Position numbers and translations under genes: made by a program
Assembly: GCA_017634675.1 (NCBI GenBank)
Contig: JAGBMX010000137.1
Span: forward strand, 58,118-122,117
Length of the DNA stretch: 64,000 nt
Direction: 5' to 3'
Source of the DNA: Selenomonadaceae bacterium
Lineage (GTDB): Bacteria > Bacillota > Negativicutes > Selenomonadales > Selenomonadaceae
The notes under the pieces: model-generated
Told to the model about the DNA's origin: nothing
Database searches by the model: none
The model's input: the letters and a program-made list of their open reading frames with translations, nothing else
Part shown: positions 10,759-27,328 of the stretch, piece by piece
How positions within the stretch are numbered: the stretch's first letter is position 1
Layout of the letters: each line of letters opens with the position of its first letter

Positions 10759-10898
10759 ACAGCATCCCCTTTAGGGTAGAAATTACTTTATAAAGCTATG
10801 TTCTGATTGTACAAGATGAACCCAAAATTGTCAAGCTAAGCTAGAGAATTCACGCTAATTAGGTTAAAATTAATTTTATTTTGGATGGAGGAATTTTT

Positions 10899-11652: not shown

Positions 11653-12606
11653 ATGGCAAAAGAATTGCGTATGGAAAGAAAAGTTGTATTTACAGAGCGT
11701 CCTCCATTTCCTGAAAATATGCTTGTAGAACTTACTAACAAATGTAACCATCAATGTATTTTCTGTCACTATCGTCTTATGAGCCGTAAAAAAGCGGATT
11801 GTAATCGAGAATTTACCTTTGATATCATAAAACAAGCCTATGACAACGGTACGCGCGAGATTGGGTTTTATATGATAGGCGAGCCTTTTTTGAAGCGGGA
11901 TTTGGAGGAATACATTGCTTACGCCCATAATCTTGGTTTTACATACATTTATCTAACCACCAACGGCGCTTTGGCTACCTTAGAGCGCACCGTTAAATGT
12001 ATTGAGGCGGGATTAAACAGTATCAAATTCTCCATAAACGCCGCCACTACTGAGCATTACATACAAATACACGGGCACGACGATTATGAAACTGTAAAAA
12101 CAAATGTTCGCAATCTTAGCGAATATGTAAGAAAAAATAATATAGATCTTTCAATGTTTATCACTTTCGTAAAAACTAATATTACGTTAGATGATTTTGA
12201 TTTGTTGCTGGCGGATTTTTCATCCTTTGTTGACAAAATATACGAATGCGACTGCAACTCTCAAGGAACGCCTATAATCGAATTGATCAATAACGGTATT
12301 GTAAATCCTTTAATATACTTAAAAGAAAACCAAGAGCTATGCCAGATGGTTTTTAATCGCTTACATATAACTAGCGAAGGTTATTTAAACGCCTGTTGCG
12401 CAGATGCTGAAGGGCTTTTGAGCGCCGTTGATTTGCATGAAGTTTCACTAAAGGAAGCTTGGCATTCGGATATTATGGTTAATTTGCGTCGGCAATTTCT
12501 TAACAATACACTTAGTAAAGATGTTCTTTGCTATAACTGCTTACATAAAGAGCAACATAAGGTAAAGCCCTTAAACGAAGCGCTTTGGTCATCGAATGGA
12601 CGCTAA
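11653..12606 (+). CDS. radical SAM enzyme with C-terminal SPASM/twitch-like Cys cluster
   Basis: CNHQCIFC (CX3CX2C) lies near the N-terminus. The C-terminal Cys-rich region contains CDCNSQG, GYLNACCADAEG and CYNCLH. Confidence 0.85.
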   Translation: MAKELRMERKVVFTERPPFPENMLVELTNKCNHQCIFCHYRLMSRKKADCNREFTFDIIKQAYDNGTREIGFYMIGEPFLKRDLEEYIAYAHNLGFTYIYLTTNGALATLERTVKCIEAGLNSIKFSINAATTEHYIQIHGHDDYETVKTNVRNLSEYVRKNNIDLSMFITFVKTNITLDDFDLLLADFSSFVDKIYECDCNSQGTPIIELINNGIVNPLIYLKENQELCQMVFNRLHITSEGYLNACCADAEGLLSAVDLHEVSLKEAWHSDIMVNLRRQFLNNTLSKDVLCYNCLHKEQHKVKPLNEALWSSNGR

Positions 12607-14634: not shown

Positions 14635-14664
14635 TGGATGATTATTAACAAAAATTAATTTTTG

Positions 14665-14891
14665 CCTGTCTGTAGACTTATTGTCGTTGTTTCCAATTTA
14701 AGAGGATACTCCCCCCGCCCCCCCTCTAGGAGGGGGGCTTTTATGTGGTTCATTCTTAGATAAGTGCCACAAAAGCAACAGTCAGAGAGCCTCCCTCTCA
14801 GAGGAAGGTGCCCGAAGAGCGGAGGGGTCGACCATGAAGAGCGCTATTTTTATTTTTGTACTACATGTGAATAGTAACAATACTTATTGTA
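14665..14891 (+). repeat. MITE-like element, family H, copy A (approximate ends)
   Basis: Shares the core CAGAGAGCCTCCC...GGTGCCCGAAG.GC.GAGGGGT.GACCATGAAGAGC and GTGAATAGTAAC with copies at 17949-18212 and, inverted, 44730-44965. Confidence 0.65.
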
Positions 14892-14923
14892 CAGACTGTA
14901 GACTTATTAAAAATAATTTTAAA

Positions 14924-15002
14924 ATGGGGGTCCAGAGGGGCGAAGCTCCTTTGGCGGGTCAAGGGCAGCGCCCTTGTGGGGTTTGGGGCAAAGCCCCAAA
15001 AA
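14924..15002 (-). repeat. GC-rich triple-hairpin repeat, family G, copy 1 (inverted)
   Basis: The reverse complement aligns with 48388-48466 and 49682-49761. Confidence 0.75.
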
Positions 15003-15080
15003 CTTCATTTTTCGACAGTCTGAACAATACTTATTGTAATTTCATTGTTTTGTCGATAATCTGCATTTTTTCAAAAATTA

Positions 15081-15108
15081 TGTAACACTTTTCATTTTCA
15101 GGCGTATA
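15081..15108 (+). promoter_or_regulatory. ECF-type promoter of P1: TGTAAC-N16-CGTATA
   Basis: TGTAAC at 15081-15086, a 16-nt spacer, and CGTATAAAG starting at 15103. It is part of a roughly 100-bp module repeated at P2 and P9. Confidence 0.6.
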
Positions 15109-15167
15109 AAGATACAGAAAGAAAAAAATAAAAGCCTTTAGGCAAACAATTTGAAAGGATGATTGTA

Positions 15168-15500
15168 ATGAAACTTAATAAGGAAAACAAACTAAGCAAT
15201 GATGAACTTGAACAGGTAGCCGGAGGTCATTGTGGGAATAGTTATAAAGATATGCAGCGAGCGTACGACAGGCAAATGCCGGGCTTTGAAAACATGGATC
15301 CCTCAAATATAGCTACGATGGTATATTGCCTCAAAAACTGGGATAAAGTGGTGGGAGAGCTAAAAAATATGTTCGCCCAATACGGAATCGAAATGACTTA
15401 CAAAAGCGACCCCTTAGAAGACAATCTTTATATGTACCAAGGCAGGCGGATTACCGACGGTCAAGCGTGGCAAATCCTCGACAGCCAAAGAAACCCCTGA
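15168..15500 (+). CDS. GG-leader cargo protein P1 (subfamily A)
   Basis: MKLNKENKLSNDELEQVAGG leader, then a 90-aa hydrophilic domain (HCGNSYKDM...YMYQGRRITDGQAWQILDSQRNP). RBS GAAAGGA and an ECF-type promoter lie upstream. Confidence 0.8.
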   Translation: MKLNKENKLSNDELEQVAGGHCGNSYKDMQRAYDRQMPGFENMDPSNIATMVYCLKNWDKVVGELKNMFAQYGIEMTYKSDPLEDNLYMYQGRRITDGQAWQILDSQRNP

Positions 15501-15542
15501 TTCCCATGAGTATCACGCTCATTAAAATTTTTTCAAAAATTA

Positions 15543-15570
15543 TGTAACACTTTTCATTTTCAATCGTATA
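15543..15570 (+). promoter_or_regulatory. ECF-type promoter of P2: TGTAAC-N16-CGTATA
   Basis: Same motif and spacing as for P1. Confidence 0.6.
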
Positions 15571-15629
15571 AAGATACAGAAAGAAAAAAATAAAAGCCTT
15601 TAGGCAAACAATTTGAAAGGATGATTGTA

Positions 15630-15974
15630 ATGAAACTTAATAAGGAAAACAAACTAAGCAGTGAGGAACTTGAGCAGGTAGTCGGAGGAAACGCTGGCGA
15701 AACTGCGCTTGAATCGGAATTTTTGCGAGACCTTGGATATAATATTCAAGAAATGGGTTTCTTTCACATGGAGCTTAATTGGGAAGAAGGGTCGGCTAAA
15801 GTCAGGGATGGATGGGCGCATTTCGGCGTAGATTGTCATACCGCCAGGTCGGTAAAAAACGAATATTACATCGACGGCAAGAGAGTTTCCAGGCGCCAGG
15901 CATTTCAGCATGCGGCATATAAAGCCGGAAAACCGTGGATCTATGATGATGATTATTCTAAATGCGCACTCTGA
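15630..15974 (+). CDS. GG-leader cargo protein P2 (subfamily B, divergent)
   Basis: MKLNKENKLSSEELEQVVGG leader. The 5' module is near-identical to P1. The core has ESEFLRDLGYN...GWAHFGVD...NEYYIDGKRVSRRQAFQHA. Confidence 0.8.
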   Translation: MKLNKENKLSSEELEQVVGGNAGETALESEFLRDLGYNIQEMGFFHMELNWEEGSAKVRDGWAHFGVDCHTARSVKNEYYIDGKRVSRRQAFQHAAYKAGKPWIYDDDYSKCAL

Positions 15975-16035
15975 TATAAAATGATAGGTTTACCCCCGAA
16001 ACATACGAAAAGAGATTTTTTCAAAAATTATGTAA

Positions 16036-16124
16036 GGCAACCTCTAAAAATTGCCTAATTTCCTTGATGTCTCCCCGCCCCTTCGGGGCGGGGAGACATC
16101 AAAAATAAGTTTTTAGAAGTGCCC
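16036..16124 (+). repeat. repeat element, family K, copy 1 (inserted in the P3 promoter module)
   Basis: Aligns along its length with 21923-22010. It contains the hairpin GATGTCTCCCCGCCCC-TTCG-GGGCGGGGAGACATC. Confidence 0.7.
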
Positions 16125-16151
16125 GTAACAATTTCCGTTTTCAGTCGTATA
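16124..16151 (+). promoter_or_regulatory. ECF-type promoter of P3-P4: CGTAAC-N16-CGTATA
   Basis: Same spacing. The -35 element abuts an inserted repeat element (16036-16124). Confidence 0.55.
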
Positions 16152-16203
16152 AAAATACAGAAATAAAACGTCTGAGGGCGAACGACACGAAAGGATGATT
16201 GTA

Positions 16204-16560
16204 ATGCAACTCGATAAAGAACACAAACTGAACGATGAGGAACTTGAGCAAGTATCGGGAGGATGCGACTATGAAACATCCGATGACAGCAAATTTTTGA
16301 ATGTTTTGCTCAGTGGAACCGATTATCATCGTTGCGATCGCTACGGCAAATTTAAAATTTTTTGGGGGAGCAGCAAACGTTACGGTCCATGTGAAGATAT
16401 CGAGAATTCTTGGAGGGTGCTTGGCATTGAGATGGTCCCTTACGCCTCTGATCGTAATGAATACTGGATGAACGGCAAACTACTTACGAGGGGCGAGGCT
16501 TGGGCCCATGCGGAGAAATTAGTGGGCAAGCACTTGGAACGCGCAGATTGGGACTGGTAA
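16204..16560 (+). CDS. GG-leader cargo protein P3 (subfamily B)
   Basis: MQLDKEHKLNDEELEQVSGG leader. The core has DDSKFLNVLL...RYG...WRVLGIEM...NEYWMNGKLLTRGEAWAHAEKLVGKHLERADWDW. Confidence 0.8.
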   Translation: MQLDKEHKLNDEELEQVSGGCDYETSDDSKFLNVLLSGTDYHRCDRYGKFKIFWGSSKRYGPCEDIENSWRVLGIEMVPYASDRNEYWMNGKLLTRGEAWAHAEKLVGKHLERADWDW

Positions 16561-16604
16561 CGTAAAAAGAAAAAAAGAACGTCTAAGAAAGGATAGTGAT
16601 TTAA

Positions 16605-16937
16605 ATGCCGAATTTTGAATATGCAAAACTCACCGATGATGAACTTGAGCAGGTAGCCGGAGGTCATTGCGGGGATAGTTATAAAGATATGCGTCAAGCG
16701 TACGAGAGGAAAATGCCGGGCTTTGAAAAACTGGATCCCGAGAGCCTGGATACGATGGTGTATTGTTTAAAAAACTGGGATAAAGTGGTGGGAGATCTAA
16801 AAAATATGTTCGCCCAATACGGAATCGAAATGACTTACAAAAGCGACCCATTAGAAGACAATCTCTATATGTACCAAGGCAGGCGCATTACTAACGGTCA
16901 AGCGTGGCAAATCCTCGACAGCCAAAGAAACCCCTGA
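16605..16937 (+). CDS. GG-leader cargo protein P4 (subfamily A; close paralogue of P1)
   Basis: MPNFEYAKLTDDELEQVAGG leader. By hand count the core differs from P1 at about 13 of 90 positions. It starts 44 nt after P3, so it is probably co-transcribed. Confidence 0.8.
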   Translation: MPNFEYAKLTDDELEQVAGGHCGDSYKDMRQAYERKMPGFEKLDPESLDTMVYCLKNWDKVVGDLKNMFAQYGIEMTYKSDPLEDNLYMYQGRRITNGQAWQILDSQRNP

Positions 16938-16998
16938 TTTCCATGAGTATGGTAGGTTTATCACTCAAACATACGAAAGAAAATTTTTAAAAAAAACA

Positions 16999-17026
16999 TG
17001 CAACATTTTTTGTTTTTTCTGAATAT
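16999..17026 (+). promoter_or_regulatory. ECF-type promoter of P5-P6: TGCAAC-N16-GAATAT
   Basis: Variant of the same motif, followed by the conserved AAAGCCTTTAGGCAA 5'-UTR box. Confidence 0.5.
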
Positions 17027-17086
17027 AAAGTACAGCAAGAATGAACGAAAGCCTTTAGGCAATGAGAAATCAAGGAGATGTTGAAA

Positions 17087-17461
17087 ATGGCAAAACGCGA
17101 AGAAATTCTCAAAAAAATTAATCTTGAACTTAATAAGTTGAGCGATGAAGAACTTGAACAAGTGGCGGGCGGCAATGCGGAGCAAACGTCAAATGACAGT
17201 CGCTTTCTTAACAGCTTGAACGGCTCGACAGACCGTTACGGCCCGGAACGTATCGCGTGGTCGTTTGGAATTCATAATGCGGAAATTGAAAAAGGTTGGG
17301 CGACAGTCGGAATAAAAGCAACAGTCTATTTCGCTTGCGGCGGTTTCGGCAAAAGCAACAGATATTATCTTAACGGCCGAGAAATCTCGCAGGAAGAGGC
17401 GCGTCAGCACGCAATGGAAGTCACTCAGCACTATATGACGGAAAAAGATTGGAAATGGTAA
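17087..17461 (+). CDS. GG-leader cargo protein P5 (subfamily B)
   Basis: MAKREEILKKINLELNKLSDEELEQVAGG leader. The core has NDSRFLNSLNGSTDRYG...GWATVGIK...NRYYLNGREISQEEARQHAMEVTQHYMTEKDWKW. AAGGAG RBS lies 10 nt upstream; the ORF track starts at 17078. Confidence 0.8.
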   Translation: MAKREEILKKINLELNKLSDEELEQVAGGNAEQTSNDSRFLNSLNGSTDRYGPERIAWSFGIHNAEIEKGWATVGIKATVYFACGGFGKSNRYYLNGREISQEEARQHAMEVTQHYMTEKDWKW

Positions 17462-17500
17462 AAAATTTTGCAACTATGTGAAATAGAGGAGATGTTTAAA

Positions 17501-17839
17501 ATGGTACAGAATATAGAGATGAACAAATTAAACGATAGCCAGCTTGAAAATGTTGCGGGCGGTTGCAGCTATGAGTCGTTTGAATTATTCCACGCTTTAA
17601 GAGGCAACAATGCCTTTCAGAAAGATTATCCCGGTCTTTTTGCTCCTCCGGTGAACCAGGAGGTTAAGATAGACGATAACATTATGGAGAAAGCGCTCTT
17701 GGAAAAGATGGGAATTAAGGCGCAGATTAATTGGGGGCCTGACGAATGGTTCGATTGCAATAAGTATGTGTCTGCAGACACCGGCAAGAGATTGTATCAT
17801 GATGATGTTATAAAAGCCATAAAGAATTACAAAGGTTAA
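17501..17839 (+). CDS. GG-leader cargo protein P6 (divergent)
   Basis: MVQNIEMNKLNDSQLENVAGG leader followed by a divergent 92-aa core. It starts 39 nt after P5 and is followed by a strong terminator. Confidence 0.7.
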   Translation: MVQNIEMNKLNDSQLENVAGGCSYESFELFHALRGNNAFQKDYPGLFAPPVNQEVKIDDNIMEKALLEKMGIKAQINWGPDEWFDCNKYVSADTGKRLYHDDVIKAIKNYKG

Positions 17840-17867
17840 AAAATTACCTTTTGTTGCTGAAACATAT

Positions 17868-17926
17868 AAGAGCCGATAGCTTGGTGACTAAGACCACAAG
17901 CTACCGGCTCTTGTACCGTTTTTCAC
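17868..17926 (+). terminator. rho-independent terminator after P6
   Basis: AAGAGCCGATAGCTTGGTG ... CACAAGCTACCGGCTCTT followed by a T-rich tail. Confidence 0.75.
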
Positions 17927-17948
17927 AGCATCATTTCCACAACGAATA

Positions 17949-18212
17949 GCACGGAGAGTGACTATTCACGGGTAATACAACATAGTGGTGCGAAAGGTGA
18001 ATTGGTGCCGTTCACGGTCGACCTCTCCACCGCTTCGCGGTCCCCCTCCCCTTTCAGGGGAGGCAATGTGAAGGTGACTTTTCTATTATATATCCACAAA
18101 ATGAGAAATCAGAGAGCCTCCCCTGAAAGGGGAGGTGCCCGAAGGGCAGAGGGGTTGACCATGAAGAGCAATATTTTCCTTTTTTTACTACCCGTGAATA
18201 GTAACCACGGAG
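17949..18212 (+). repeat. MITE-like element, family H, copy B (long imperfect inverted-repeat arms)
   Basis: The left end ...ACTATTCACGGG pairs with the right end CCCGTGAATAGTAAC. The internal arms (GTCGACCTCTCC...CCCCTTTCAGGGGAGGC versus GCCTCCCCTGAAAGGGGAGG...GGTTGAC) are also complementary. Confidence 0.7.
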
Positions 18213-18481
18213 AAGATTATTAGGTTAAATCGCCCCATCAATCATCTCCGTACTTTTTGTTTTGTCTGCCTTCTTGAAACCGCAATTATCCTGTTCACGC
18301 ATTGGATTCTTTCATTATTTTATATCGTCATAACCTTGTCACCAAATATTTTCTCAAATTGGTTTAAATTTTTATTCAACTTTCCCAGGACAAAACAGGC
18401 AGTAAATCCTTTATGGGATGCGCATTGCCGTTGATTAATACGAACTGCCATGAGGACTTTTACGCCATGGAGGCTGTGTTA

Positions 18482-18775
18482 TGACAAATTGCCGCTTTTG
18501 GCAATTTTGACGCCGAAAGACAGCGTTTGCTTTTTGGTCTTAAAAAGTGTGAGGATATTTGCGACGGGCGACTTTCGTTTTATTGCCAAAAAGTTAATCC
18601 GAATGAACGACCTAAGATTTATCGCGCTATTGACAAAGCGTTGGATATTGTGAGCAAAGAGCTGAACGAATTGAATGTCGAGGGCAATGGAGAAGCGGAA
18701 ATTTTCATGTCGTTTGCGGGCAAAAGTATTGCCGAAAGAATAGGCGAAGCGATGGACTGCGCTTCGTTAGGATGA
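18482..18775 (+). pseudogene. possible gene remnant (no proper start; upstream part in another frame)
   Basis: The open frame ...AAFGNFDAERQRLLFGLKKCEDICDGRLSFYCQKV...AMDCASLG has no ATG or RBS near its beginning. An upstream fragment (MGCALPLINTNCHEDFYAMEAVL) is in a different frame. A terminator follows. Confidence 0.25.
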
Positions 18776-18799
18776 CAAAAAATGTCGTAAAATAAATAA

Positions 18800-18855
18800 A
18801 CAAAAGCTACATTTCACAAATTATGATATGCTGAAATGTAGCTTTTGTTTTAAAT
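18800..18855 (+). terminator. rho-independent terminator
   Basis: ACAAAAGCTACATTTCA ... TGAAATGTAGCTTTTGT followed by TTTTAAATTTT. Confidence 0.75.
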
Positions 18856-19343
18856 TTTATCCGCATAATGCTTACGCTCTTCTTGAGGAAAAAATCGTTT
18901 AAAAAAAGGATTATAACTATAAGACGGCGAATTTTTAGAAGTCAGATATATATTAACTTAGATATATACTAAATTTATTTGAGCGAAAGTTCACTTAAAC
19001 GACGGCGTCGGAAATTCCGATTTGAACTTTAACAATAAATGAATCTTTGAAGGGGAATTGAAGCGTTGAAAATTCAGCGCGACCAGCGCTTGGTGCAACA
19101 GGGCTGGCTGTCAGTTCGAGTGCTACCGCCAAAATCTTGTCAATGCCGAAAAACAGGTGAAGGTTGCCAAATCTACGCTGGCAAGCATTGTGGGACTGTC
19201 CCAAGACACGGATGTGAAGCCGTCGGACATAAAAGCAATGGGGGTGCCGGTTGCCACGGACGCTTTGCGCTATGTCGCAACGGAAAAAGAAGGAGCCACG
19301 GCAGAACAGGCGCTGAAAGCCTCGCAAATGGAGAAGAATCCGG

Positions 19344-20009
19344 ATGAACATAAAGATTATTACAAGCGGTAAAAAACGGACGGATCCTTGGGGACAGCTG
19401 GCGGTAAAAGCCATTCATGATGAACAGGCATTTACGGAGCTTTACGAATATTTTTTCCCAAGGGTCTATCAATATCTGCTGAAAAAAACACAGGACAGCC
19501 ATCTCGCAGACGAAATGGTGGAGAGCGCCTTTGTCCGTATGTATCAGCACTTATCTCAGTACGTCCCGGAGAAAGGCGCCTTTTCCACATGGCTGTTCCG
19601 CATTGCCCAAAACGTATTGAATAAGCATTACGGCAGCAAGGCAGTGACTATGCATACGGCTTGGGAGGAAACTTTCGATCCCGCCGCGCCGGAGAAAGAA
19701 ACTCCGGAGGAGCAAGCACTTACCAAAGAACGCAGCAGGGAGTTGCGCGACGCCATAATGAAATTGCCACCTCGCCAGCGTCAGATATTGGAGATGACCT
19801 ACTGGCTTGATATGAAGTCTGCGGACATAGCCGAACAGATGGGCATGGCTCCCAGTTCCGTCAGAGTAGCCTTAAAGCAGGCAAGGGACGCGCTGCGGAA
19901 ACTTTTTGCGAAAAAAATTGCAGTCTATGGGGGAGGCGATAAAAAACGCGACTTGCGTAATGGTGGCGCACAGACTAAATACCATAAAAAAAGCGGATAT
20001 TATTTATGA
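19344..20009 (+). CDS. ECF-type sigma-70 family RNA polymerase sigma factor
   Basis: Region 2: FTELYEYFFPRVYQYLLKKTQDSHLADEMVESAFVRMYQHL...FSTWLFRIAQNV. Region 4: LPPRQRQILEMTYWLDMKSADIAEQMGMAPSSVRVALKQARDALRKL. Confidence 0.85.
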   Translation: MNIKIITSGKKRTDPWGQLAVKAIHDEQAFTELYEYFFPRVYQYLLKKTQDSHLADEMVESAFVRMYQHLSQYVPEKGAFSTWLFRIAQNVLNKHYGSKAVTMHTAWEETFDPAAPEKETPEEQALTKERSRELRDAIMKLPPRQRQILEMTYWLDMKSADIAEQMGMAPSSVRVALKQARDALRKLFAKKIAVYGGGDKKRDLRNGGAQTKYHKKSGYYL

Positions 20010-20118
20010 AATCAAAGACGGAGCAGTCATTCGGTACGATAGCTTTGAAGAATTTGAAAAAACTAGGAATATAGCATGATATACCTTGTAAAAAAAAAGA
20101 AAAAATTTAAAAAAAAAT

Positions 20119-20146
20119 CATAACAGTTTGCTGCCTTCGAGGATAT
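20119..20146 (+). promoter_or_regulatory. weaker copy of the array promoter ahead of ORF 20172-P7: CATAAC-N16-GGATAT(AAAG)
   Basis: Motif and spacing similar to the other copies. Confidence 0.35.
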
Positions 20147-20171
20147 AAAGAATGAAGAGAGGTGATAGAGA

Positions 20172-20435
20172 ATGAGGAACGAAACGTTAGAACAGGAATT
20201 GAGCGCGTTCGACTTTTCCCTCTGTCATCCCGTTCGTACGCACTTACTTAATAAGCTGCTCACTATCCACAGGGCAGACAACGTTGCTACGGAGCAGCCT
20301 AGTCGTAAATGGACATTCGCCCGTCTGGACGATAAGGAACTGAACTGGGTTGTAGCTGCGGGCAGCGTCGGAAATTTGCAAAACTCTGAAGAATGGAAAG
20401 AAAGGGTGACGGATCATGTCATTAAAAGAAAGTAA
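20172..20435 (+). CDS. 87-aa hypothetical protein with an internal leader-like motif (LDDKELNWVVAAG)
   Basis: RBS AGAGGTGA. The 3' end overlaps the P7 start by 20 nt. A weaker copy of the array promoter lies upstream. Confidence 0.5.
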   Translation: MRNETLEQELSAFDFSLCHPVRTHLLNKLLTIHRADNVATEQPSRKWTFARLDDKELNWVVAAGSVGNLQNSEEWKERVTDHVIKRK

Positions 20436-20754
20436 AAAATTGAGTGTTGAAGATCTTGAGGGTGTGTCTGGCGGTACGATTATCGAAACGGTGGCTGACA
20501 GCGTAGAGCTTTACAAGCGTGGTCTGTTGAACAAAGAATACGATGGTTGCGCGGCCGTCCGGGACAAGTTGCATGGCATGGGCTATAGCGGCTATGTGGA
20601 TATGGGCGGCATAGCCAAAGGCAATATTTATACGGATAAGGATGGCAACACGATTACACGTCAGCAATTCTGGAAAAACTTCGATGCGGAAAACGGCACT
20701 AAGATTATCCGCAGCAGCCAGTATGATGGTTTAAAAGACGCTTTGGGGATGTAA
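20416..20754 (+). CDS. GG-leader cargo protein P7 (divergent)
   Basis: MSLKESKKLSVEDLEGVSGG leader. The core ends in ...NIYTDKDGNTITRQQFWKNF..., matching the family C-terminal motif. A terminator follows. Confidence 0.7.
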   Translation: MSLKESKKLSVEDLEGVSGGTIIETVADSVELYKRGLLNKEYDGCAAVRDKLHGMGYSGYVDMGGIAKGNIYTDKDGNTITRQQFWKNFDAENGTKIIRSSQYDGLKDALGM

Positions 20755-20767
20755 TGCTCAGATTATA

Positions 20768-20815
20768 AAAAGGGTCCTGTTGATGCCGAAAAGCATCAGC
20801 AGGACCCTTTTTTTC
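20768..20815 (+). terminator. rho-independent terminator after P7
   Basis: AAGGGTCCTGTTGATGC ... GCATCAGCAGGACCCTT followed by TTTTTT. Confidence 0.85.
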
Positions 20816-20879
20816 GGGAATTGGGTAATTTGTTTGCCGCCAAAGTAATATTCTCTGTCATTGCCATCTCTGCCAAATA

Positions 20880-20935
20880 AAAAAATGGGCTGTCGCAAGA
20901 AGTAATTTACCAATTCTTGCGACAGCCCATTTTTG
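20880..20935 (-). terminator. rho-independent terminator after P8
   Basis: ATGGGCTGTCGCAAGAA ... TTCTTGCGACAGCCCAT, flanked by A and T runs. Confidence 0.8.
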
Positions 20936-20945
20936 TATCGCCTTA

Positions 20946-21299
20946 CTAATGCCAATCATTATATGACATATAATGACCGGTGACTTCCATGGCGTGTTGA
21001 CGCGCCTGTTCGTGTGAGATGGGCGTGATATTTCCGCCGTCAATGAGCACATATTGAATTTTCGTATCATAATCCGTAGGGTCACCGGGGCAAATAATGC
21101 CTACTCCAAGTTTTGCCCATGCATTTTCAATGATTAAAAGTCGATCCTTGGAGTTATGTATTTTCCATGCGCCATAACGATCCGTCGAACCGTTCAACGA
21201 GTTCAAAAAACGGCTGTCATCCGCCAAGTCGTAAGCGCTTCCCCCTACAACCTGCTCCAATTCCTCATCGTTCAGCTTTTCATTTTCATGATTTTTCAT
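20946..21299 (-). CDS. GG-leader cargo protein P8 (subfamily B)
   Basis: MKNHENEKLNDEELEQVVGG leader. The core has DDSRFLNSLNGSTDRYGAWK...NAWAKLGVG...EQARQHAMEVTGHYMSYNDWH. AGGAG RBS is present. The ORF-track N-terminal extension to 21431 overlaps P9 and was rejected. Confidence 0.8.
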   Translation of the reverse strand: MKNHENEKLNDEELEQVVGGSAYDLADDSRFLNSLNGSTDRYGAWKIHNSKDRLLIIENAWAKLGVGIICPGDPTDYDTKIQYVLIDGGNITPISHEQARQHAMEVTGHYMSYNDWH

Positions 21300-21370
21300 T
21301 TTAATAGCTCCTTTTTTACTTTTGATTTCACATAAGCGCTTAGCGCGAAACACCGTTTCGCAGGTCGTTG

Positions 21371-21700
21371 TCACCAATCCCAATCCGCGCGCTTCAAGTG
21401 CTTGCCCACCACTTGCTCCGCGTGTAGCCACGCTTCATCTCGGGAGACCTGTCTGCCATTGATACGATAACTGTAATCGAAGTTATCTCCAGTGCACTCA
21501 AATTCGACGCCCACCGATGCCCATGCTCTCCTTATTTCGTCCTTGTGACCTTTGACTGTCCAAGCGCCATATCTCCCGCATTGTCCCTCGTGCCCTCGAA
21601 GCAGCACATTCAAGAATCTCGAATCCTGGTCGAGTTGACCGCCGCCGACAACCTGCTCCAGTTCATCATTGGTGAGTTTGTCTTCCTTATTGAGTTCCAT
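21371..21700 (-). CDS. GG-leader cargo protein P9 (subfamily B)
   Basis: MELNKEDKLTNDELEQVVGG leader. The core has QDSRFLNVLLRG...RYGAW...AWASVGVEF...YSYRINGRQVSRDEAWLHAEQVVGKHLKRADWDW. The same 5' promoter module as P1/P2 is present in inverted orientation. Confidence 0.8.
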   Translation of the reverse strand: MELNKEDKLTNDELEQVVGGGQLDQDSRFLNVLLRGHEGQCGRYGAWTVKGHKDEIRRAWASVGVEFECTGDNFDYSYRINGRQVSRDEAWLHAEQVVGKHLKRADWDW

Positions 21701-21758
21701 TTCAATAATCCTTTCACATTGTTCGCCTAAAGGCTTTTATTTTTTCTTTCTGTATCTT

Positions 21759-21786
21759 TATACGCTTGAAATCGAAAGATGTTACA
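21759..21786 (-). promoter_or_regulatory. ECF-type promoter of P9-P8: TGTAAC-N16-CGTATA (minus strand)
   Basis: The reverse complement of 21701-21800 matches the P1/P2 5' module almost base for base. Confidence 0.6.
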
Positions 21787-21825
21787 TAATTTTAAAAAAA
21801 TTAAAAACAAGTTTTTAAAAATGCC

Positions 21826-21872
21826 CTAAAACAAAACCGGCTGTCCTCCGCTTAAAAAGCAGGGGACAGCCG
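21826..21872. terminator. hairpin terminator between the phosphatase cassette and the P9 promoter
   Basis: CCGGCTGTCC ... GGACAGCCG, with A and T runs on both sides. Confidence 0.65.
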
Positions 21873-21887
21873 ATTTTAAAGTTTTTT

Positions 21888-21919
21888 TATTCGCATCCCA
21901 TAGAGATTGTGATTAAACC
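21888..21919. repeat. left copy of a 32-bp inverted repeat bracketing the histidine phosphatase gene
   Basis: TATTCGCATCCCATAGAGATTGTGATTAAACC. Its reverse complement matches 22763-22794 at 29 of 32 positions by hand alignment. Confidence 0.8.
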
Positions 21920-21922
21920 AAA

Positions 21923-22010
21923 GACACCTCTAAAAACCATTTGATTTCCCTTAGACTTCCCGCCGCAAAGGGCGTGGAATCATCAAAAACGAGTCTTTAG
22001 AGATGCCCCA
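21923..22010 (+). repeat. repeat element, family K, copy 2
   Basis: Aligns with 16036-16124. A partial third copy of the AAAAAYRAGTYTTTARARRTGCCC motif lies at about 21803-21826. Confidence 0.7.
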
Positions 22011-22019
22011 AAGTAATTT

Positions 22020-22742
22020 TCAATATTTGCCGTTAAGATGAACGGTAGAATTTAGAAGCATAAGCCTCCACTGACCGTTTTCATATTCAAGCACGTTTAC
22101 GCAGGTGTTGTCCTGACCTAACTTCAAGAACATACTTGGATCCATGCCAAGAGCTCTTATGATAACAGCGCGGTTCACCGTTCTGTGTGCGCCTATAAAA
22201 ATGGTTTTGCCGGGGTATTTTTTCACTGTGTCTTCTAAGGCTTTCATACCCCTGTCCCCTACGTCCGCAAAGCTTTCGCCGCCCGGATATTTGACGAGCC
22301 AAGGAGTTTCTTTTAACTGTTTTTCAATTTCGGGATATTTTTTATAAGCGTCGGGTCTGGTCATGCCGGTTAAATCGCCAAAATCTATTGTTTTAAATCT
22401 TACATCGGTATAGGCGATTTTTTGGTTGTGCAGGGCAGCTACCTTTTCGGTAGTTTGCATGGCGCGTTTAAACGGAGTGGAAATAAAAACATCTATATGG
22501 GTGTTTTTGAGAGCCTGTGCCAACAATTCCGCCTGTTTGAAGCCGGTTGCGTTCAAGCTTGGATCGGCATTGCCCTGGAATATGTCTTTGCGATTGAACT
22601 CGGTCTGTCCGTGTCTTGCCAAAATAACTCTTGTGACTTGACCTTGCGCGGCTGCAAAAGCCGGAGTCGCCACAATGAATAAAGCCAAAACAGCCACAAA
22701 CTGAAAGATTTTTTTGCTAAAACGATTAAAAATTTTCAACAA
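22020..22742 (-). CDS. secreted histidine phosphatase superfamily protein (phosphoglycerate-mutase-like)
   Basis: Signal peptide (VAVLALFIVATPAFAAAQG) and the RHGQTEFN catalytic motif. GAGGAGG RBS. Confidence 0.8.
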   Translation of the reverse strand: MLKIFNRFSKKIFQFVAVLALFIVATPAFAAAQGQVTRVILARHGQTEFNRKDIFQGNADPSLNATGFKQAELLAQALKNTHIDVFISTPFKRAMQTTEKVAALHNQKIAYTDVRFKTIDFGDLTGMTRPDAYKKYPEIEKQLKETPWLVKYPGGESFADVGDRGMKALEDTVKKYPGKTIFIGAHRTVNRAVIIRALGMDPSMFLKLGQDNTCVNVLEYENGQWRLMLLNSTVHLNGKY

Positions 22743-22762
22743 AATTCCTCCTCAATATAGGC

Positions 22763-22794
22763 GGTTCAATCACAATCTCTACTGGATGCGAATA
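22763..22794. repeat. right copy of the 32-bp inverted repeat
   Basis: GGTTCAATCACAATCTCTACTGGATGCGAATA. Confidence 0.8.
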
Positions 22795-22810
22795 TTTTAG
22801 GAACTGCTGC

Positions 22811-24508
22811 CTACGCAAAATATTTTTGCTCGTCCAGCATACCCGCTTTTTTGGCTACGATAAAAGATGTGGTTATGTTGGCGCTTTCGTTGCAAACACC
22901 GTTGAACATAGATGCTAGGGGTTCAATGCAGAGGATCACGGAGATTGCTTCGGGAGGCACGCCCACCACGGTGAAAAGGTAGGCGATGCAGATGATGCCG
23001 CCGCAGGGAATGGGCGGTTTTGCAATAGCCATGACAAATACGGAAAGCCATAGGGTCAGAAACATCTCCGCAGGTATCTCCAGATTGTAAACTCTCATAA
23101 ACATAATAGTCACAAGAGAGAAGAAGACGCAGTTGCCCGCCTTATTTAGCTGCACCCCCACGGGAATGGAAAAAGCCGCCAGCTTGCCGTCAATGCCCAA
23201 TTTCTCGGCGCAAAATTTCAGCACGAAGGGCAGCCGCGCATGGGAACTGGACACGGTGAATATCAATGGAGAAAGAGCGGCAAGTTTTTTAATGGCCTTT
23301 ATTGGGGATATTTTGCCGAAGAGAAGAACCGCGCAGGCTGCTACAGCCCACACGATAAGGATACCCAACGCCAAACCGCCGAAGAGTTTGCCGAAGGCAA
23401 GCAGGGATTCTATGCCGGTGCCGGCAAAGAGGGACAGCATAGAAAGGAACACCACCAAGGGAATAGCCTTCACTATGAGCTTGAGGACGGCAAGAACAAA
23501 GCGGAACACAAAATCTATTACTTCCACTGCGCCTTTGGCTTTCTCCCCCATGTTGTTGATGATGAAGCCGAAAAATATGGCAAGGAACATAACCTGTAGG
23601 ATATTGTCCCCCTTAAAGGGATCCACCAGGTTCCTAGGGACGATGTTTAAGAGCATATCCGCCAAAGACACATTTTGCCCCGGGGCGTTTCCCCCGCCGG
23701 AGGATGAAATGCCCGCTTGTATGTAGCTAAAATCTCCGGTGAAGATGAAAATCCCCAAAAAGAGAGCCAATAGTACGGTGATGAGCTGCATAAAGCCGGA
23801 CACCATCACCATCCTGCCCCCCAGCTTGCCAATGAGAGCAGCGTCGGAAATGTTTGTGATGCCGGCGATAATGGCGAAAAAGGTCACGGGAGCCATCATC
23901 ATGTGCAGAGCGTTCAGAAAAAGGCTGCGCACGGGATTGATGAAGCTGTTGTTGACGGCGGCAATGGCGGCGTTGTCCAAAACGCTCTGGGCAATGAGAC
24001 CGCCTACAATCCCCAAAATGAGCGCGCACACAGTATAGATGAGCTGTTTCTTTGTGGAATTAAGCTCTCGCAGCTTGATGGTGACGATGTTCTTGCCGTT
24101 TTTGCGTACGCAGGAAAGCCTTTGCCGATTGGTTTTTAGTATGGCCAGCCTGTAGGCTTCCTCCTCGTCCCCATCTTCTTGCTCGGTTACGCTGGGAATT
24201 GGATTGTACTCTCTGCCACAGACTTCTAAGCGAAGGTCTGTTTCCCTCCAAGCTCGCTTTAATGACACGTCTGCGGAAAAATCCTCGCCACGACGCGCAG
24301 GATGCTCTAGTGCGGGCGCAGGAGCGTGATGCGACTGGTTGCGCCCGCCTTCCATGCCCTTCTTAAGACGAAAGAACATTTCCTCCATAAGAAGCTGCGC
24401 CATGGTAATTTCCTTGACGGAAAGCCCCGCCTCTTTAAGATGCGCCGCCACTTCCTGCCGTCCTTGGCTGAAATTTTGGGCGGAAACTGTGATGCTGTTT
24501 TTTTCCAT
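22811..24508 (-). CDS. dicarboxylate/amino acid:cation symporter (DAACS) family transporter with about 150-aa N-terminal cytoplasmic extension
   Basis: Multi-pass hydrophobic core with SSSHARLP and VGVQLNKAGN-type motifs typical of the GltP/SstT-like family. ATG 24508 was preferred to GTG 24514. Confidence 0.75.
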   Translation of the reverse strand: MEKNSITVSAQNFSQGRQEVAAHLKEAGLSVKEITMAQLLMEEMFFRLKKGMEGGRNQSHHAPAPALEHPARRGEDFSADVSLKRAWRETDLRLEVCGREYNPIPSVTEQEDGDEEEAYRLAILKTNRQRLSCVRKNGKNIVTIKLRELNSTKKQLIYTVCALILGIVGGLIAQSVLDNAAIAAVNNSFINPVRSLFLNALHMMMAPVTFFAIIAGITNISDAALIGKLGGRMVMVSGFMQLITVLLALFLGIFIFTGDFSYIQAGISSSGGGNAPGQNVSLADMLLNIVPRNLVDPFKGDNILQVMFLAIFFGFIINNMGEKAKGAVEVIDFVFRFVLAVLKLIVKAIPLVVFLSMLSLFAGTGIESLLAFGKLFGGLALGILIVWAVAACAVLLFGKISPIKAIKKLAALSPLIFTVSSSHARLPFVLKFCAEKLGIDGKLAAFSIPVGVQLNKAGNCVFFSLVTIMFMRVYNLEIPAEMFLTLWLSVFVMAIAKPPIPCGGIICIAYLFTVVGVPPEAISVILCIEPLASMFNGVCNESANITTSFIVAKKAGMLDEQKYFA

Positions 24509-24517
24509 AAACACACC

Positions 24518-25727
24518 TTATCTGAAAAATTCGTCGATACGCCCTGCGACTTTCATGATGTCGTCCAAACGCGGGAACAGGTTTTTCCTTGTTTCCTCCA
24601 CGTGGAAGGCTTTTAATTCAGGGGCAATCTGCACGTGTTTTCTGGGGAAGAGTGCGCCGCGTAAGAGTCCAAAGGCATCCAAGAGAGTTTTAATATCCGC
24701 AAGTCTTTCCTCGTCTTGTGTGTCAAAGTAAATGGCAAGGAGCGTGTTGTAGAAGCGGAGCATATTCTCCTGATTCATTCCGTGGACTTTTTGTCTGGTT
24801 TCCGAGCCGCTGTAACGGGCGTGGAAAGCGTTGCCCGCCAAGTCAAAGATTGGGTGGCCGTAACCGATGTCCGCCATGTCTATAACCACGATCTCGCCCT
24901 TTTGGTACATGACGTTGCCGGCGTGGTAGTCGCAATGCACCATGGTGGAACGGTCGGGTATGGTGTCGATGAGCTTGTGAAGGCTCTCTGTCTCATGACT
25001 GTCAAAGCCGTCGTCGCTATTCATGCCGTCCGCCCAGCTGTGCCATGTGTCTTTAAGGGAATTGAAGCCTCCCATTTCCTTAATGTCAGTTTGATGGATA
25101 ATCTTGTAGGTGTCCACAAACTTTCGGGTAATTTCGTCAAACTCGTCCATATGAGAAGTGATGCTTGGAGATGCGACCTACCGTGTCCGCATCTCCAAGC
25201 ATCTCAAAGACCACGCCGTAAGACTTATCGCACGTCACTAAATCATAGGAAATGGGCGTAGGTATTCCCACCACAAAAGCTTTCTTTGCAAGGTCTATCT
25301 CTTGCTTAATCTTGGGTAGAGGAACGCCTGCGGTGTAGAGTTTGACAATGGTTTCGGGATCTATGCGGTAGACGGTGCTGGATCTCCCTTTGCCCACGAT
25401 TTCTGCGCCCTCGATACTGATTTCCCTCATTTTCTTCTCAATGTTCATCAAGCTGGTGAACTTTGTCATGTCAAAGATTTCATAAACATCTTTGGACACA
25501 TTTCGTACTGTGAGCTTGTTTTTTCCCATTTTATTTTGGGTAGCGAGGAGCAGCCTGAGTCCGGCGCTGGAAATATAGGTCAGGGCATCGGCGTCAAAGA
25601 GAATTTCCCGACCGGGATTGGCGGAAATAATTTCGTTTATTTCCTTTTGAAGCGCAGGGACGTTTTTGGCGTTGATTTCCCCTTCAAAAAAGATGGTAAG
25701 CAAATTGTCTTGGACAGAAGTTTTCAT
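24518..25727 (-). pseudogene. STAS domain fused to an aminoglycoside-phosphotransferase/choline-kinase-like kinase, split by a +1 frameshift near 25140-25150
   Basis: ORF 25137..25727 encodes STAS (TYISSAGLRLLL) plus the kinase N-lobe. ORF 24518..25150 encodes the kinase C-lobe (HCDYHAGNVM catalytic loop, IDMADIGYGHP). The two ORFs overlap in different frames. Confidence 0.7.
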
Positions 25728-27328
25728 GGTTGAACATTCCTTTCGTTTTCAAACGCGTGATATATAAGTTCTAACATAGTGATGTCGTCCGACTGCTCGG
25801 CTTTGCCCGCATACTTTGTTAGAATTGATAGCATTTCATTGATGTCTGCCTTTGCGTTTTTCCCGAGCGCTTCGGTTGCTTTTAACAGGCGTTTTTCTTC
25901 GAAGAAACCGTTTTCCTCGTTTCTTGCTTCGGTAACGCCGTCGGTGTAGAGGATGAGACTGTCACCCGGACTTAGTTTCAGGGTTCTTGTGGGAAAGGCA
26001 AGCCCATCCACCATGCCCAAGATGGGGCTGTCGGCTTTGTTTAGAAAGCGGCATTTTCCGCCGGCTTTGAGAACAGGGGGATTATGTCCCGCGTTGGCGT
26101 AGACAAATTCTCCCGTTTTTATGTCAAGAATCCCTGTGAAGACAGTGACAAACATATTTTCTTCATTGACGTTAACGAGAGCGTTGTTGGTTTCCTCGAA
26201 GACCTGACCAAGTTTGTCCGCCCCCGCAAAAAGGAGACTTTCCTTTAAAAGGGTCTTGGCAATCACCATGAAGAGCGCGGCAGGCACTCCCTTGTCCGAA
26301 ACGTCGGCTACGGTTATAGCCAAATGCCTCTCGTCAATGAAGTAAAAATCGTAGAAATCCCCTCCCACCTCTTTGGCGGGTTGCATTATTGCCGCCAGAT
26401 CAAACTCTTTCCTAACAAAAGGTTTCCCCACCCTAGGCAACATCCCTGCTTGTATGCGGGTGGCAACAGATAATTCCGTTTCGATACGCTCCTTTTGGGC
26501 GCTCATTTTGGACAGATGTTCCGTATAGGCGGCAAGCTCGTCCATCATGGTGTTGAAGCTCTCCGCCAAAGTTTCAAGTTCGTCGCCGGTATCTATGGAG
26601 AGCTTCTTTTCAAAATTACCTCTTGCAATCTCTCTGGCTCTCTCCGTCAAGAGATTTATGGGCGCCGCAAAACTTTTTACCAGACGCACATTGGCTTTTA
26701 AGATAGCGACCAGGATGCACACAAAGAGCAGAGCCGACAGCATCGCCATAAGGAGGAAGAATTTTTGCAAACCTGCGCTGTAGTCGCTGATAATGCCTTG
26801 GGTGTATTCCTCGATTCTGTGCACGCTTGCCATGGCTTCGGCTTTGCTCTTTACGGTGCAAATGCTCCAGCCAACGTCAGGAAGGGGCGCATAAGCGAGA
26901 TAATACTCCCTGCCCTCCACGACTACCTCTGCCAGCCCCACTTCTCCTTTCATTATACGCTGAGCCACCGCCGCCAAATCGCTGTTCTCCGAACTCAATA
27001 AATCCCTGGGGCATTCCGTTGCCGAGAACGGACCTTCCTTCAAGGGAGAAATAATGATTTCCCCTTTTTGACCCACGATAAAGCTAAAATCAGTTTCTAT
27101 ATCTTCATTACTGTTCATACGCGTCAGTATGTAATCGGTGTTAAGATCTGCCAGGGCTACGCCGGCGAAGCCATTTTCATCGTAATAGGGAGCGCAGACA
27201 GAAATGCAGTAGCCGCCGTAGGATGTAATATAAGGCTCGGTGTAGATAAGCTTTTGAGCTTCCTTAGTGTCAAGATACCACCTTCGGGACATATAATCAT
27301 AAGTGCTCCGAAGTGGTTCACTGCACAA
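25724..27328 (-). CDS. SpoIIE/PP2C-type phosphatase with partial Cache, TM and HAMP modules (apparently 5'-truncated)
   Basis: HAMP region (PINLLTERAREIARGNFEKKL...ELETLAESFNTMMDEL) and PP2C region (ATRIQAGMLP...GGDFYDFYFIDERHLAITVADVSDKGVPAALFM...DGVTEA). The open frame begins only 18 codons above a TTG, with no N-terminal TM helix. Confidence 0.8.
   Translation of the reverse strand: MCSEPLRSTYDYMSRRWYLDTKEAQKLIYTEPYITSYGGYCISVCAPYYDENGFAGVALADLNTDYILTRMNSNEDIETDFSFIVGQKGEIIISPLKEGPFSATECPRDLLSSENSDLAAVAQRIMKGEVGLAEVVVEGREYYLAYAPLPDVGWSICTVKSKAEAMASVHRIEEYTQGIISDYSAGLQKFFLLMAMLSALLFVCILVAILKANVRLVKSFAAPINLLTERAREIARGNFEKKLSIDTGDELETLAESFNTMMDELAAYTEHLSKMSAQKERIETELSVATRIQAGMLPRVGKPFVRKEFDLAAIMQPAKEVGGDFYDFYFIDERHLAITVADVSDKGVPAALFMVIAKTLLKESLLFAGADKLGQVFEETNNALVNVNEENMFVTVFTGILDIKTGEFVYANAGHNPPVLKAGGKCRFLNKADSPILGMVDGLAFPTRTLKLSPGDSLILYTDGVTEARNEENGFFEEKRLLKATEALGKNAKADINEMLSILTKYAGKAEQSDDITMLELIYHAFENERNVQP

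Follow-up and report, generated by a model that had tools for sequence, protein, structure and literature searches.

A candidate regulon of GG-leader protein genes with its own ECF-type sigma factor in rumen Selenomonadaceae

RESULTS

An ECF-type sigma factor gene lies among GG-leader genes

The DNA analyzed here is a 64-kb stretch (64,000 nt; the window) of the genome of a Selenomonadaceae bacterium (assembly GCA_017634675.1, contig JAGBMX010000137.1, positions 58,118 to 122,117 of the forward strand). It carries nine genes for proteins with a Gly-Gly (GG) leader, P1 to P9, in six units, and among them lie a gene for a sigma factor of the extracytoplasmic function (ECF) type and a gene for a small protein that we call FDFS (ORF20172) (Table 1). 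The nine open reading frames (ORFs) have leaders of the LSxxELEQVxGG type, in the register L-x3-E-L-x2-V/I-x-G-G, and by this pattern they fit substrates of a PCAT, an ATP-binding cassette (ABC) transporter that contains a peptidase, with cleavage predicted. An original prediction, made from the letters of the window, held that the sigma factor drives this family through one kind of promoter, and we compared the window with related genomes to assess this proposal.

The product of ORF 19344-20009 scored 102.6 bits with TIGR02937, the curated model of the ECF superfamily (cut-off 42.9), and matched Pfam Sigma70_r2 (52 bits) and Sigma70_r4_2 (62 bits), without region 1 or region 3. By its domain content it is thus an ECF (group 4) sigma-70 protein limited to regions 2 and 4, as originally proposed, and the further claim that no other sigma gene is present here also held in Pfam lists covering nearly all of the window. 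The closest solved structures are the ECF factor SigE (2q1z) and Bacillus subtilis SigW (5wuq). The protein reached no named equivalog: it fell below the curated cut-offs for SigW (76.7 vs. 209 and 71.3 vs. 243 bits), SigM (80.5 vs. 148) and BldN (98.8 vs. 206), and did not reach that of the SigV family either. We found 212 homologues of ~190 amino acids each, all in Selenomonadaceae, Anaerovibrio and relatives, and an identical protein is encoded on rumen metagenome contigs; the family is restricted to rumen Selenomonadaceae and their relatives. The part shared with these relatives spans approximately 19344-19915, and the final ~30 codons are a lineage-specific read-through. Since the homologues end near residue 190, we take the residues beyond it as read-through into a remnant of an ABC ATPase gene; moreover, a relative with 99% identity has a different end, and thus the tail is an accident of the lineage.

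Table 1. Predicted genes, promoters and gene remnants in the window
Feature	Position	Strand	Basis
ECF-type sigma factor gene	19344..20009	+	TIGR02937; Pfam Sigma70_r2, Sigma70_r4_2
FDFS small protein (ORF20172), candidate regulator or precursor	20172..20435	+	Profile match in sigma loci
Predicted ECF-type promoter of P1, ATGTAACACTTTT-N-GCGTATAAAGATACA	15080..15116 (pattern 15081-15111)	+	Exact pattern match; 24.9 bits
Predicted promoter of P2	15542..15578 (pattern 15543-15573)	+	Exact pattern match; 17.1 bits
Predicted promoter of P3-P4 unit, CGTAAC...CGTATAAAA	16123..16159 (pattern 16124-16154)	+	2 mismatches; 13.4 bits
Predicted promoter of P5-P6 unit, TGCAAC, without CGT	16998..17035 (pattern 16999-17030)	+	26.4 bits
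Predicted promoter of FDFS-P7 unit, CATAACA-N-GGATATAAAG	20118..20155 (pattern 20119-20150)	+	26.7 bits
Predicted promoter of P9-P8 unit	21751..21787 (pattern 21786-21756)	-	Exact pattern match; 11.1 bits
P1 GG-leader gene	15159-15500	+	ORF and leader
P2 GG-leader gene	15621-15974	+	ORF and leader
P3 GG-leader gene	16195-16560	+	ORF and leader
P4 GG-leader gene	16605-16937	+	ORF and leader
P5 GG-leader gene	17078-17461	+	ORF and leader
P6 GG-leader gene	17492-17839	+	ORF and leader
P7 GG-leader gene	20416-20754	+	ORF and leader
P8 GG-leader gene	20946-21299	-	ORF and leader
P9 GG-leader gene	21371-21700	-	ORF and leader
TolC-like outer-membrane gene remnant, internally deleted, 5'-truncated	19124..19372	+	tblastn to OEP residues 234-268
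ABC exporter ATPase remnant, last ~50 residues	19906..20079	+	NCBIfam partial matches to ABC exporter C-termini, including NHLM ABC2 and ABC1
Possible, weakly linked regulatory module	24518..27328	-	Pfam, NCBIfam matches
dCache-HAMP-PP2C phosphatase gene	25724-27328	-	Pfam, NCBIfam
STAS domain fused to APH-like kinase, split over two overlapping ORFs	25137-25727, 24518-25150	-	Pfam, NCBIfam

Six predicted promoters stand in front of the six units

Reading of the sequence from 14800 to 22200 and a pattern search both found a -35/-10 pair before each of the six units, at the positions that had been predicted; the starts of the sites agreed, while their ends had been set 3 nt short of the pattern as written. 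The pattern TGTAAC-N16-CGTATAAAG is exact at 15081, 15543 and, on the minus strand, 21786, and has two mismatches at 16124. When up to three mismatches were allowed we counted 5 matches, compared to 1.79 expected, a count that is too low because the P5 and P7 sites carry one extra base in the spacer. The distance from AAC to TATAAAG is 18 nt in P1, P2, P3 and P9 and 19 nt in P5 and P7, and the exact 16-nt spacing of the original prediction therefore holds for the first four sites, but for P5 and P7 only if the -10 block is taken to start one base earlier. Nor is CGT the hallmark of the -10 element that it had been thought to be: P5 and P7 lack it, and the conserved block is TATAAAG.

We then scored the window with a two-block weight matrix built from sites of other genomes only, so that neither the window nor its own genome contributed to the training. 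The six sites were the top six matches of the 64 kb (11.1 to 26.7 bits), followed by a match of 6.0 bits, and shuffled versions of the window gave a mean of 0.64 matches of at least 6 bits per window (maximum 15.7). The FDFS-P7 site, described beforehand as weaker, is the highest-scoring site of the window and is of the consensus type of the sigma clade; it is in fact the archetype of the family. All six sites lie 21-56 nt upstream of the start codon of a GG-leader gene or of FDFS, in the correct orientation; for instance, the P1 site is 47 nt upstream of the first in-frame ATG of its gene (15159) and the P9 site 55 nt upstream of the P9 start codon.

The P3 promoter has a history of its own. 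An 88-nt palindromic element resembling a miniature inverted-repeat transposable element (16036-16123; GGCAACCTCTAAAAA...TTTTTAGAAGTGCC), flanked by GTAA, is inserted inside its -35 element. The original upstream half (…TTCAAAAATTATGTAA) is stranded at 15981-16035, and the edge of the element regenerates a CGTAAC -35. A related copy of the element lies at ~21925-22010, beyond the P9 promoter.

The motif accompanies the sigma gene in related genomes

A genome scan with the sigma alignment yielded 80 loci, almost all of them from rumen Selenomonadaceae, Anaerovibrio, Schwartzia or Quinella. For enrichment we used 79 non-redundant loci (1.21 Mb), which had been retrieved via the sigma protein alone. 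In these loci the two-block matrix gave 46 matches of at least 12 bits, compared to 1 in the shuffle; 44 of the 46 were on the strand of the sigma gene, and 33 of the 46 were within 1 kb after its stop codon. A strict search of the loci for AAC-N18/19-TATAAAG found 59 sites, nearly all of which precede GG-leader genes or homologues of ORF20172. Automatic labels of the downstream gene, assigned for 52 matches in a locus set that differed slightly and contained the window, gave 20 FDFS genes, 19 GG-leader genes and 13 others or unassigned, most of the 13 being FDFS genes with a mis-picked start.

The consensus core of these sites is A-rich-(C/T)(A/G)TAACA(C/T)TTT-N-(C/G)(G/A)TATAAAG, with 18-19 nt from AAC to TATAAAG, and the site logo reads A-rich, (C/T)(A/G)TAACA(C/T)TTT, variable spacer, TTC(G)GG(G)A-TATAAAG-(A/G)ACA(A/G). 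Spacers vary among genomes while AAC, the T-tract and TATAAAG are constant, and this argues for selection rather than copying; the invariance of AAC is partly built in, as the site search required it, whereas the adjacent T-tract was not required and is conserved nevertheless. Close relatives of the window sigma mostly have xATAAC-N17-GATATAAAG, and most carry GGATATAAAG. In sigma relatives of ~43% identity, which belong to a distant clade (~40-45% identity), the motif, TGTAAC-N16-CGTATAAG, begins at the sigma stop codon: in the form TGTAAC(G/A)AAT-N-ACGTATAAG, the TAA stop lies inside TGTAAC, and a 64-amino-acid FDFS gene follows ~40 nt later.

This conservation bears on the simplest alternative, that the motif is a functionless by-product of a recent tandem duplication of gene cassettes. 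The regions upstream of P1 and P2 are indeed 96% identical over 162 nt, the P2 promoter lies inside this duplication, and other parts of the cassettes are duplicated as well. However, the motif is present in dozens of other genomes, with different spacers and flanks and with sigma proteins down to ~40% identity. We rejected duplication as the sole explanation because it is contradicted by the conservation across genomes, and regard it as scarcely credible.

The predicted promoters resemble those of ECF sigmas rather than those of sigma-A

In the predicted sites, 16-17 nt separate an AAC-type -35 from an xxTATA block, there is no TTG, and the final base of the -10 is not T, although T is nearly invariant at this position in sigma-A promoters. 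Judged by these features, the predicted architecture is ECF-like and not sigma-A-like. Only four of the six window sites have CGT, as do sites of the distant clade. We considered that the sites might instead serve the housekeeping sigma-A, with GTAACA or ATAACA as a weak -35 and TATAAA as the -10, perhaps aided by an activator, the ECF sigma being unrelated to them: TATAAA shares five of six positions with TATAAT, xTAACA shares four of six with TTGACA at a spacing of 17-18 nt, and the A-rich upstream tract resembles an UP element. Nevertheless, a scan with the sigma-70 consensus flagged none of the six sites, and sigma-70-like matches in the region were as frequent as the shuffle expectation. 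Furthermore, in all of ~50 sites the -10 ends in A, with G after it, and never in T; the -35 has no TTG but an invariant AAC with its neighboring T-tract; and the motif occurs almost exclusively beside this sigma gene. We therefore rejected the sigma-A promoters, an explanation that we hold to be very unlikely.

The sigma family in question probably reads the six sites

Taken with the enrichment across genomes, the match in strand and the location before GG-leader and FDFS genes, these results favor the dedicated ECF sigma regulon that was originally proposed, and we consider it probable that the six sites are promoters read by this sigma family. With this sigma, RNA polymerase would begin its transcripts a few bases beyond TATAAAG, and the six units transcribed in this way would comprise the nine GG-leader genes and the small FDFS gene. 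Both the position of the start and the assignment of the motif to the window sigma, rather than to another factor, we infer from sequence comparison; strong comparative evidence supports the interpretation of a dedicated pairing of sigma and promoter.

Several observations weigh against this interpretation. The pairing rests on co-occurrence, and the promoter of the sigma gene itself was not identified in the window, where its original operon is destroyed. Two of the six sites, P3 (13.4 bits) and P9 (11.1 bits), score within the range of the shuffles (maximum 15.7); they are not significant by score alone and are credible because of their location. Among the 77 loci with enough flanking sequence, only 28 reach 12 bits with the matrix, which was trained on clade A, and many distant loci have a divergent variant of the motif that was judged by eye only. 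Finally, CG precedes TATAAAG in P1, P2, P3 and P9, which is typical of the distant sigma clade, whereas GA or GG is the usual pair in close relatives of the window sigma.

Given this last point, we weighed the possibility that a second sigma, a paralogue from the distant clade with its gene elsewhere in the genome, reads the sites of the TGTAAC-N16-CGTATAAAG type (P1, P2, P3 and P9); the window sigma would then be left mainly with the FDFS-P7 site and perhaps P5-P6. The two clades differ in just this way, as described above (TGTAAC-N16-CGTATAAG in the distant loci, mostly xATAAC-N17-GATATAAAG in the close relatives), and both occur together in Selenomonas ruminantium ATCC 12561 (loci L012 and L055), in Sheep_1_mag_3 (L035 and L045) and in bin.32 (L022 and L042). 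In contrast, a TGTAAC -35 and 18-nt spacing are also found in clade-A loci (L012, L015, L021, L022, L030 and L005), and a G precedes TATAAAG in the clade-A locus L003. Moreover, in the closest relative (L007), whose sigma is 89% identical to that of the window, the P9 homologue has GGATATAAAG; thus the difference between CG and GA flips between near-identical systems. Nor did the Pfam lists for nearly all of the 64-kb window show a second sigma gene. On balance we find a paralogue unlikely and prefer the window sigma as the reader of all six sites.

In relatives an NHLM-type export operon contains or adjoins the sigma gene

In most loci the sigma gene either closes a five-gene operon or is found next to it. 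The products of this operon are a pair of membrane-fusion proteins, a C39-peptidase ABC transporter, another ABC protein (~925 amino acids) and a TolC-like outer-membrane protein. The exporter was found in 52 of 78 sigma loci, and that of L003 passed the curated NHLM/NHLP cut-offs (TIGR03796, TIGR03797, TIGR03794) for ABC1 (981.7 vs. 853.3 bits), ABC2 (722 vs. 709.4) and the HlyD-like adaptor (209.4 vs. 156.2). Because the sigma gene is last in or beside the export operon in these relatives, the module couples an exporter, a transcription factor and cargo genes. It was this synteny that revealed the exporter: the original prediction had expected that a scan for the motif might point to it, but a metagenome scan with TGTAACA-N15-CGTATAAAGATA gave one match, a chance occurrence on an unrelated contig, upstream of an rpoD-like gene. 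Two of the loci with the full exporter-sigma-FDFS arrangement are in Clostridia bins (L072, an Agathobacter bin, and L083, a Ruminococcus bromii bin), which reflects either contamination of the bins or horizontal transfer outside the Negativicutes.

The window retains only traces of the operon. A TolC-like remnant directly upstream of the sigma gene has C-terminal residues that match the end of the outer-membrane protein of L005, and an ABC ATPase remnant overlaps the 3' end of the extended sigma ORF in a different frame. We found no exporter homologues in the 64 kb beyond these two remnants, and the window locus is thus an incomplete system; from the fragments left behind, we conclude that the exporter operon is deleted here. 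The context is unrelated even in the closest relative, L007, which has only the sigma, FDFS-P7 and P9 segments in common with the window.

FDFS is the most conserved neighbor of the sigma gene

A profile built from 36 FDFS sequences was searched against 78 sigma loci and found FDFS in 65 of them, always on the strand of the sigma gene and adjacent to it in ~53. FDFS is therefore linked more tightly to the sigma gene than the exporter is (65 vs. 52 of 78); it is the most conserved neighbor of the sigma gene and the gene found most consistently behind the motif. Its N-terminal conserved segment reads LEQELxxFDFSxCHxVRExLL..HR. Further on, a leader-like motif, ELxWVxAA-G, keeps the exact register of a GG leader (E at -8, L at -7, V at -4) with an invariant Ala-Ala at -2 and -1 in place of Gly-Gly, usually followed by Gly, and the C-terminal tail is short, variable and hydrophilic. 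No relative was found in Pfam, in NCBIfam or, by sequence profile, in the PDB, and a database search returned only 13 close relatives, all without a name. The AlphaFold2 (AF2) model is helical with a mean confidence (pLDDT) of 54, which is low; such helices would suit a leader peptide as well as a small protein that binds a partner and folds upon it. In some loci radical SAM/SPASM genes lie beside FDFS.

These features leave several candidate roles. FDFS could regulate the sigma in the manner of an anti-sigma, possibly with a coupling to the exporter; it could be a long-leader precursor from which a secreted signal peptide is made under positive feedback; or it could be another peptide precursor. 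We also considered a more specific and rather doubtful version of the first role, in which FDFS would be both an anti-sigma-like regulator and a pseudo-substrate of the C39-peptidase ABC exporter, forming a checkpoint like that of FlgM. Under such a checkpoint the N-terminal helices of FDFS would hold the ECF sigma while the Ala-Ala leader-like motif docks on the exporter. A free exporter would capture, cleave or export FDFS and so release the sigma, and when the exporter is saturated or absent the sigma would stay inhibited.

The sigma appears not to be autoregulated through the motif

In 36 of 37 distinct loci the 450 nt upstream of the exporter operon, of which the sigma gene is usually the last gene, contained no motif even with the threshold lowered to 5 bits, and the window sigma gene likewise has none upstream. 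The failure to find the motif in front of the sigma gene, already mentioned in the original prediction, is thus a property of the family and not a gap in the search. Since the exporter operon lacks the motif, autoregulation of the sigma by this route appears to be absent, and on these grounds we rejected it. The single locus with a full-strength motif upstream of the exporter operon is L015 (831-868; 42 bits, at -365), in which no convincing small gene was called between this motif and the first exporter gene.

A co-transcribed anti-sigma factor is common among ECF sigmas, though not obligatory. Neither Pfam nor NCBIfam gave an anti-sigma domain of a known class in the neighboring genes, in agreement with the earlier observation that no membrane anti-sigma factor is adjacent. 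Presumably, the activity of the sigma is set post-translationally; the leading candidate for this control is FDFS, which would itself be transcribed from the motif, and a partner-switching set of dCache-PP2C and STAS proteins is a further candidate in some genomes. STAS and dCache-HAMP-PP2C genes directly flank the sigma gene in ~16 of 79 loci and are absent from most; the STAS protein passes the cut-off of the anti-sigma antagonist model TIGR00377, and an RsbW-like HATPase_c_2 domain was found in Anaerovibrio loci only. FDFS probably takes part in this control, in some genomes together with partner-switching proteins of the STAS/PP2C kind, and each step of it is inferred.

The window has STAS-APH and dCache-HAMP-PP2C genes of its own, 5 kb from the sigma gene and on the opposite strand. 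The STAS-APH form was not seen beside the sigma gene in other loci, and the link is therefore weak. The split of the STAS-APH gene could be due to a frameshift, a pseudogene or an assembly error.

Cargo proteins and other features of the region

Among the cargo proteins, the P9 family (P3, P5, P8 and P9) has a predicted compact alpha/beta core of ~90 amino acids (pLDDT ~90) that ends in D-W-x-W, and in the AF2 model of P9 the leader is disordered ahead of this core. The core gave no structural match in the PDB (best E 0.44, TM <0.3), and all homologues of the family are hypothetical proteins, so that the label "bacteriocin" is by analogy only. The core may be a new secreted fold.

A search of 14000-23000 with Rfam gave nothing above the gathering score. 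G+C-rich repeats of ~110 nt (14767-14878 and 18094-18205; …GGAGGTGCCCGAAG.GC.GAGGGGT.GACCATGAAGAGC…) bracket the P1-P6 block, and a similar G+C-rich element follows GG-leader genes in the related genome L005 (~11950-12070). Immediately upstream of the array are genes for a resolvase (10881-11507), a radical SAM/SPASM enzyme (11653-12606) and a 672-amino-acid protein (12616-14634) that has a citrate-lyase-ligase-like domain. Modification of peptides is a possible role of the radical SAM enzyme, whose gene is unrelated to the radical SAM/SPASM genes beside FDFS in Anaerovibrio loci.

DISCUSSION

Sigma factors have been connected with secreted peptides before, and the nearest functional precedent is the MibX/MibW pair, a cluster-situated ECF sigma and anti-sigma in the microbisporicin lantibiotic cluster of Microbispora corallina (PMC4973701). 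MibX activates several promoters of the cluster that share the consensus GAACC-N15-GCTAC; it is co-transcribed with the membrane anti-sigma MibW and autoregulates its own operon, and the precursor operon mibA does not depend on it (PMC4973701). The resemblance, an ECF sigma inside a secreted-peptide cluster with shared ECF-type promoters, is functional only, since phylum, promoter sequence and exporter type all differ. Moreover, in contrast to the Microbispora system, the window sigma has no anti-sigma of a known class nearby, and it is the cargo genes, not the operon of the sigma, that carry the motif.

The predicted promoters themselves resemble those of Bacillus ECF sigmas. The latter mediate the envelope-stress response through membrane anti-sigma factors and are autoregulated. 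In B. subtilis, promoters of SigW, SigX, SigM and SigV read tGAAACnTTTt ... CGTA/CGTC (PMC5758882), and they share with the sites described here an AAC-centered -35, an adjacent T-tract and a spacer of 16-17 nt to a CGTA-like -10. The likeness to the SigW type is closest in P1, P2 and P9 of the window, which read TGTAAC-N16-CGTATA. However, the conserved -10 here is TATAAAG, and in the relatives it is mostly preceded by GA rather than CG.

With NHLM/NHLP export systems, the module shares the exporter of the relatives, which passes all three models, and the GG-type leaders of the cargo, and FDFS resembles a long-leader precursor. The module differs in that the cargo is predicted to consist of folded domains of ~90 amino acids, not of NHLP or Nif11 precursors (neither leader model matches), and in that the window itself has lost the exporter. 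In the literature we found no sigma factor described as part of an NHLM/NHLP export system, nor any ECF sigma linked with NHLM or PCAT exporters or with bacteriocins of Selenomonas; the paper on the re-classification of ECF sigmas mentions neither bacteriocins nor STAS proteins.

Two other kinds of sigma system deserve comparison. UviA of Clostridium perfringens is an alternative sigma that controls bacteriocin genes. In streptococci, the alternative sigma SigX/ComX switches on bacteriocin-like genes whose products are exported via GG-leader ABC transporters (PMC4497675). Both differ from the window sigma in belonging to other sigma-70 subgroups, in using other boxes (for example, the cin-box) and in being induced transcriptionally, by peptide quorum-sensing circuits. 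Classical partner switching by RsbV, RsbW and RsbU controls group 3 sigmas (SigB, SigF). The STAS and PP2C genes beside the sigma gene in ~16 loci, as well as the RsbW-like domain in Anaerovibrio, recall that system; here, in contrast, the module is accessory, and the form in the window is a STAS-APH fusion not seen elsewhere. What we describe here is an ECF sigma that is embedded in a peptide-export operon and apparently not autoregulated, with a conserved, uncharacterized partner and a well-defined promoter.

The module joins a sigma factor and a promoter of 30 nt to an NHLM-type exporter and to secreted GG-leader proteins, a set that varies. It is common in rumen Selenomonadaceae, where the whole cargo is annotated as hypothetical, and the promoter model offers a means of listing this secreted cargo genome by genome. 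The sigma and its promoter also offer a compact orthogonal pair for expression work. As an ECF system it is unusual, since it lacks both the usual autoregulation and an anti-sigma of a known class and has a small, near-universal partner with an Ala-Ala motif. If the FlgM-like checkpoint were true, it would explain why the sigma gene lies in the exporter operon, why it is not autoregulated and why FDFS is its most conserved target, and it would match transcription of the cargo genes to the capacity for secretion. In this sigma-FDFS system, the tie between transcription and peptide export becomes directly testable.

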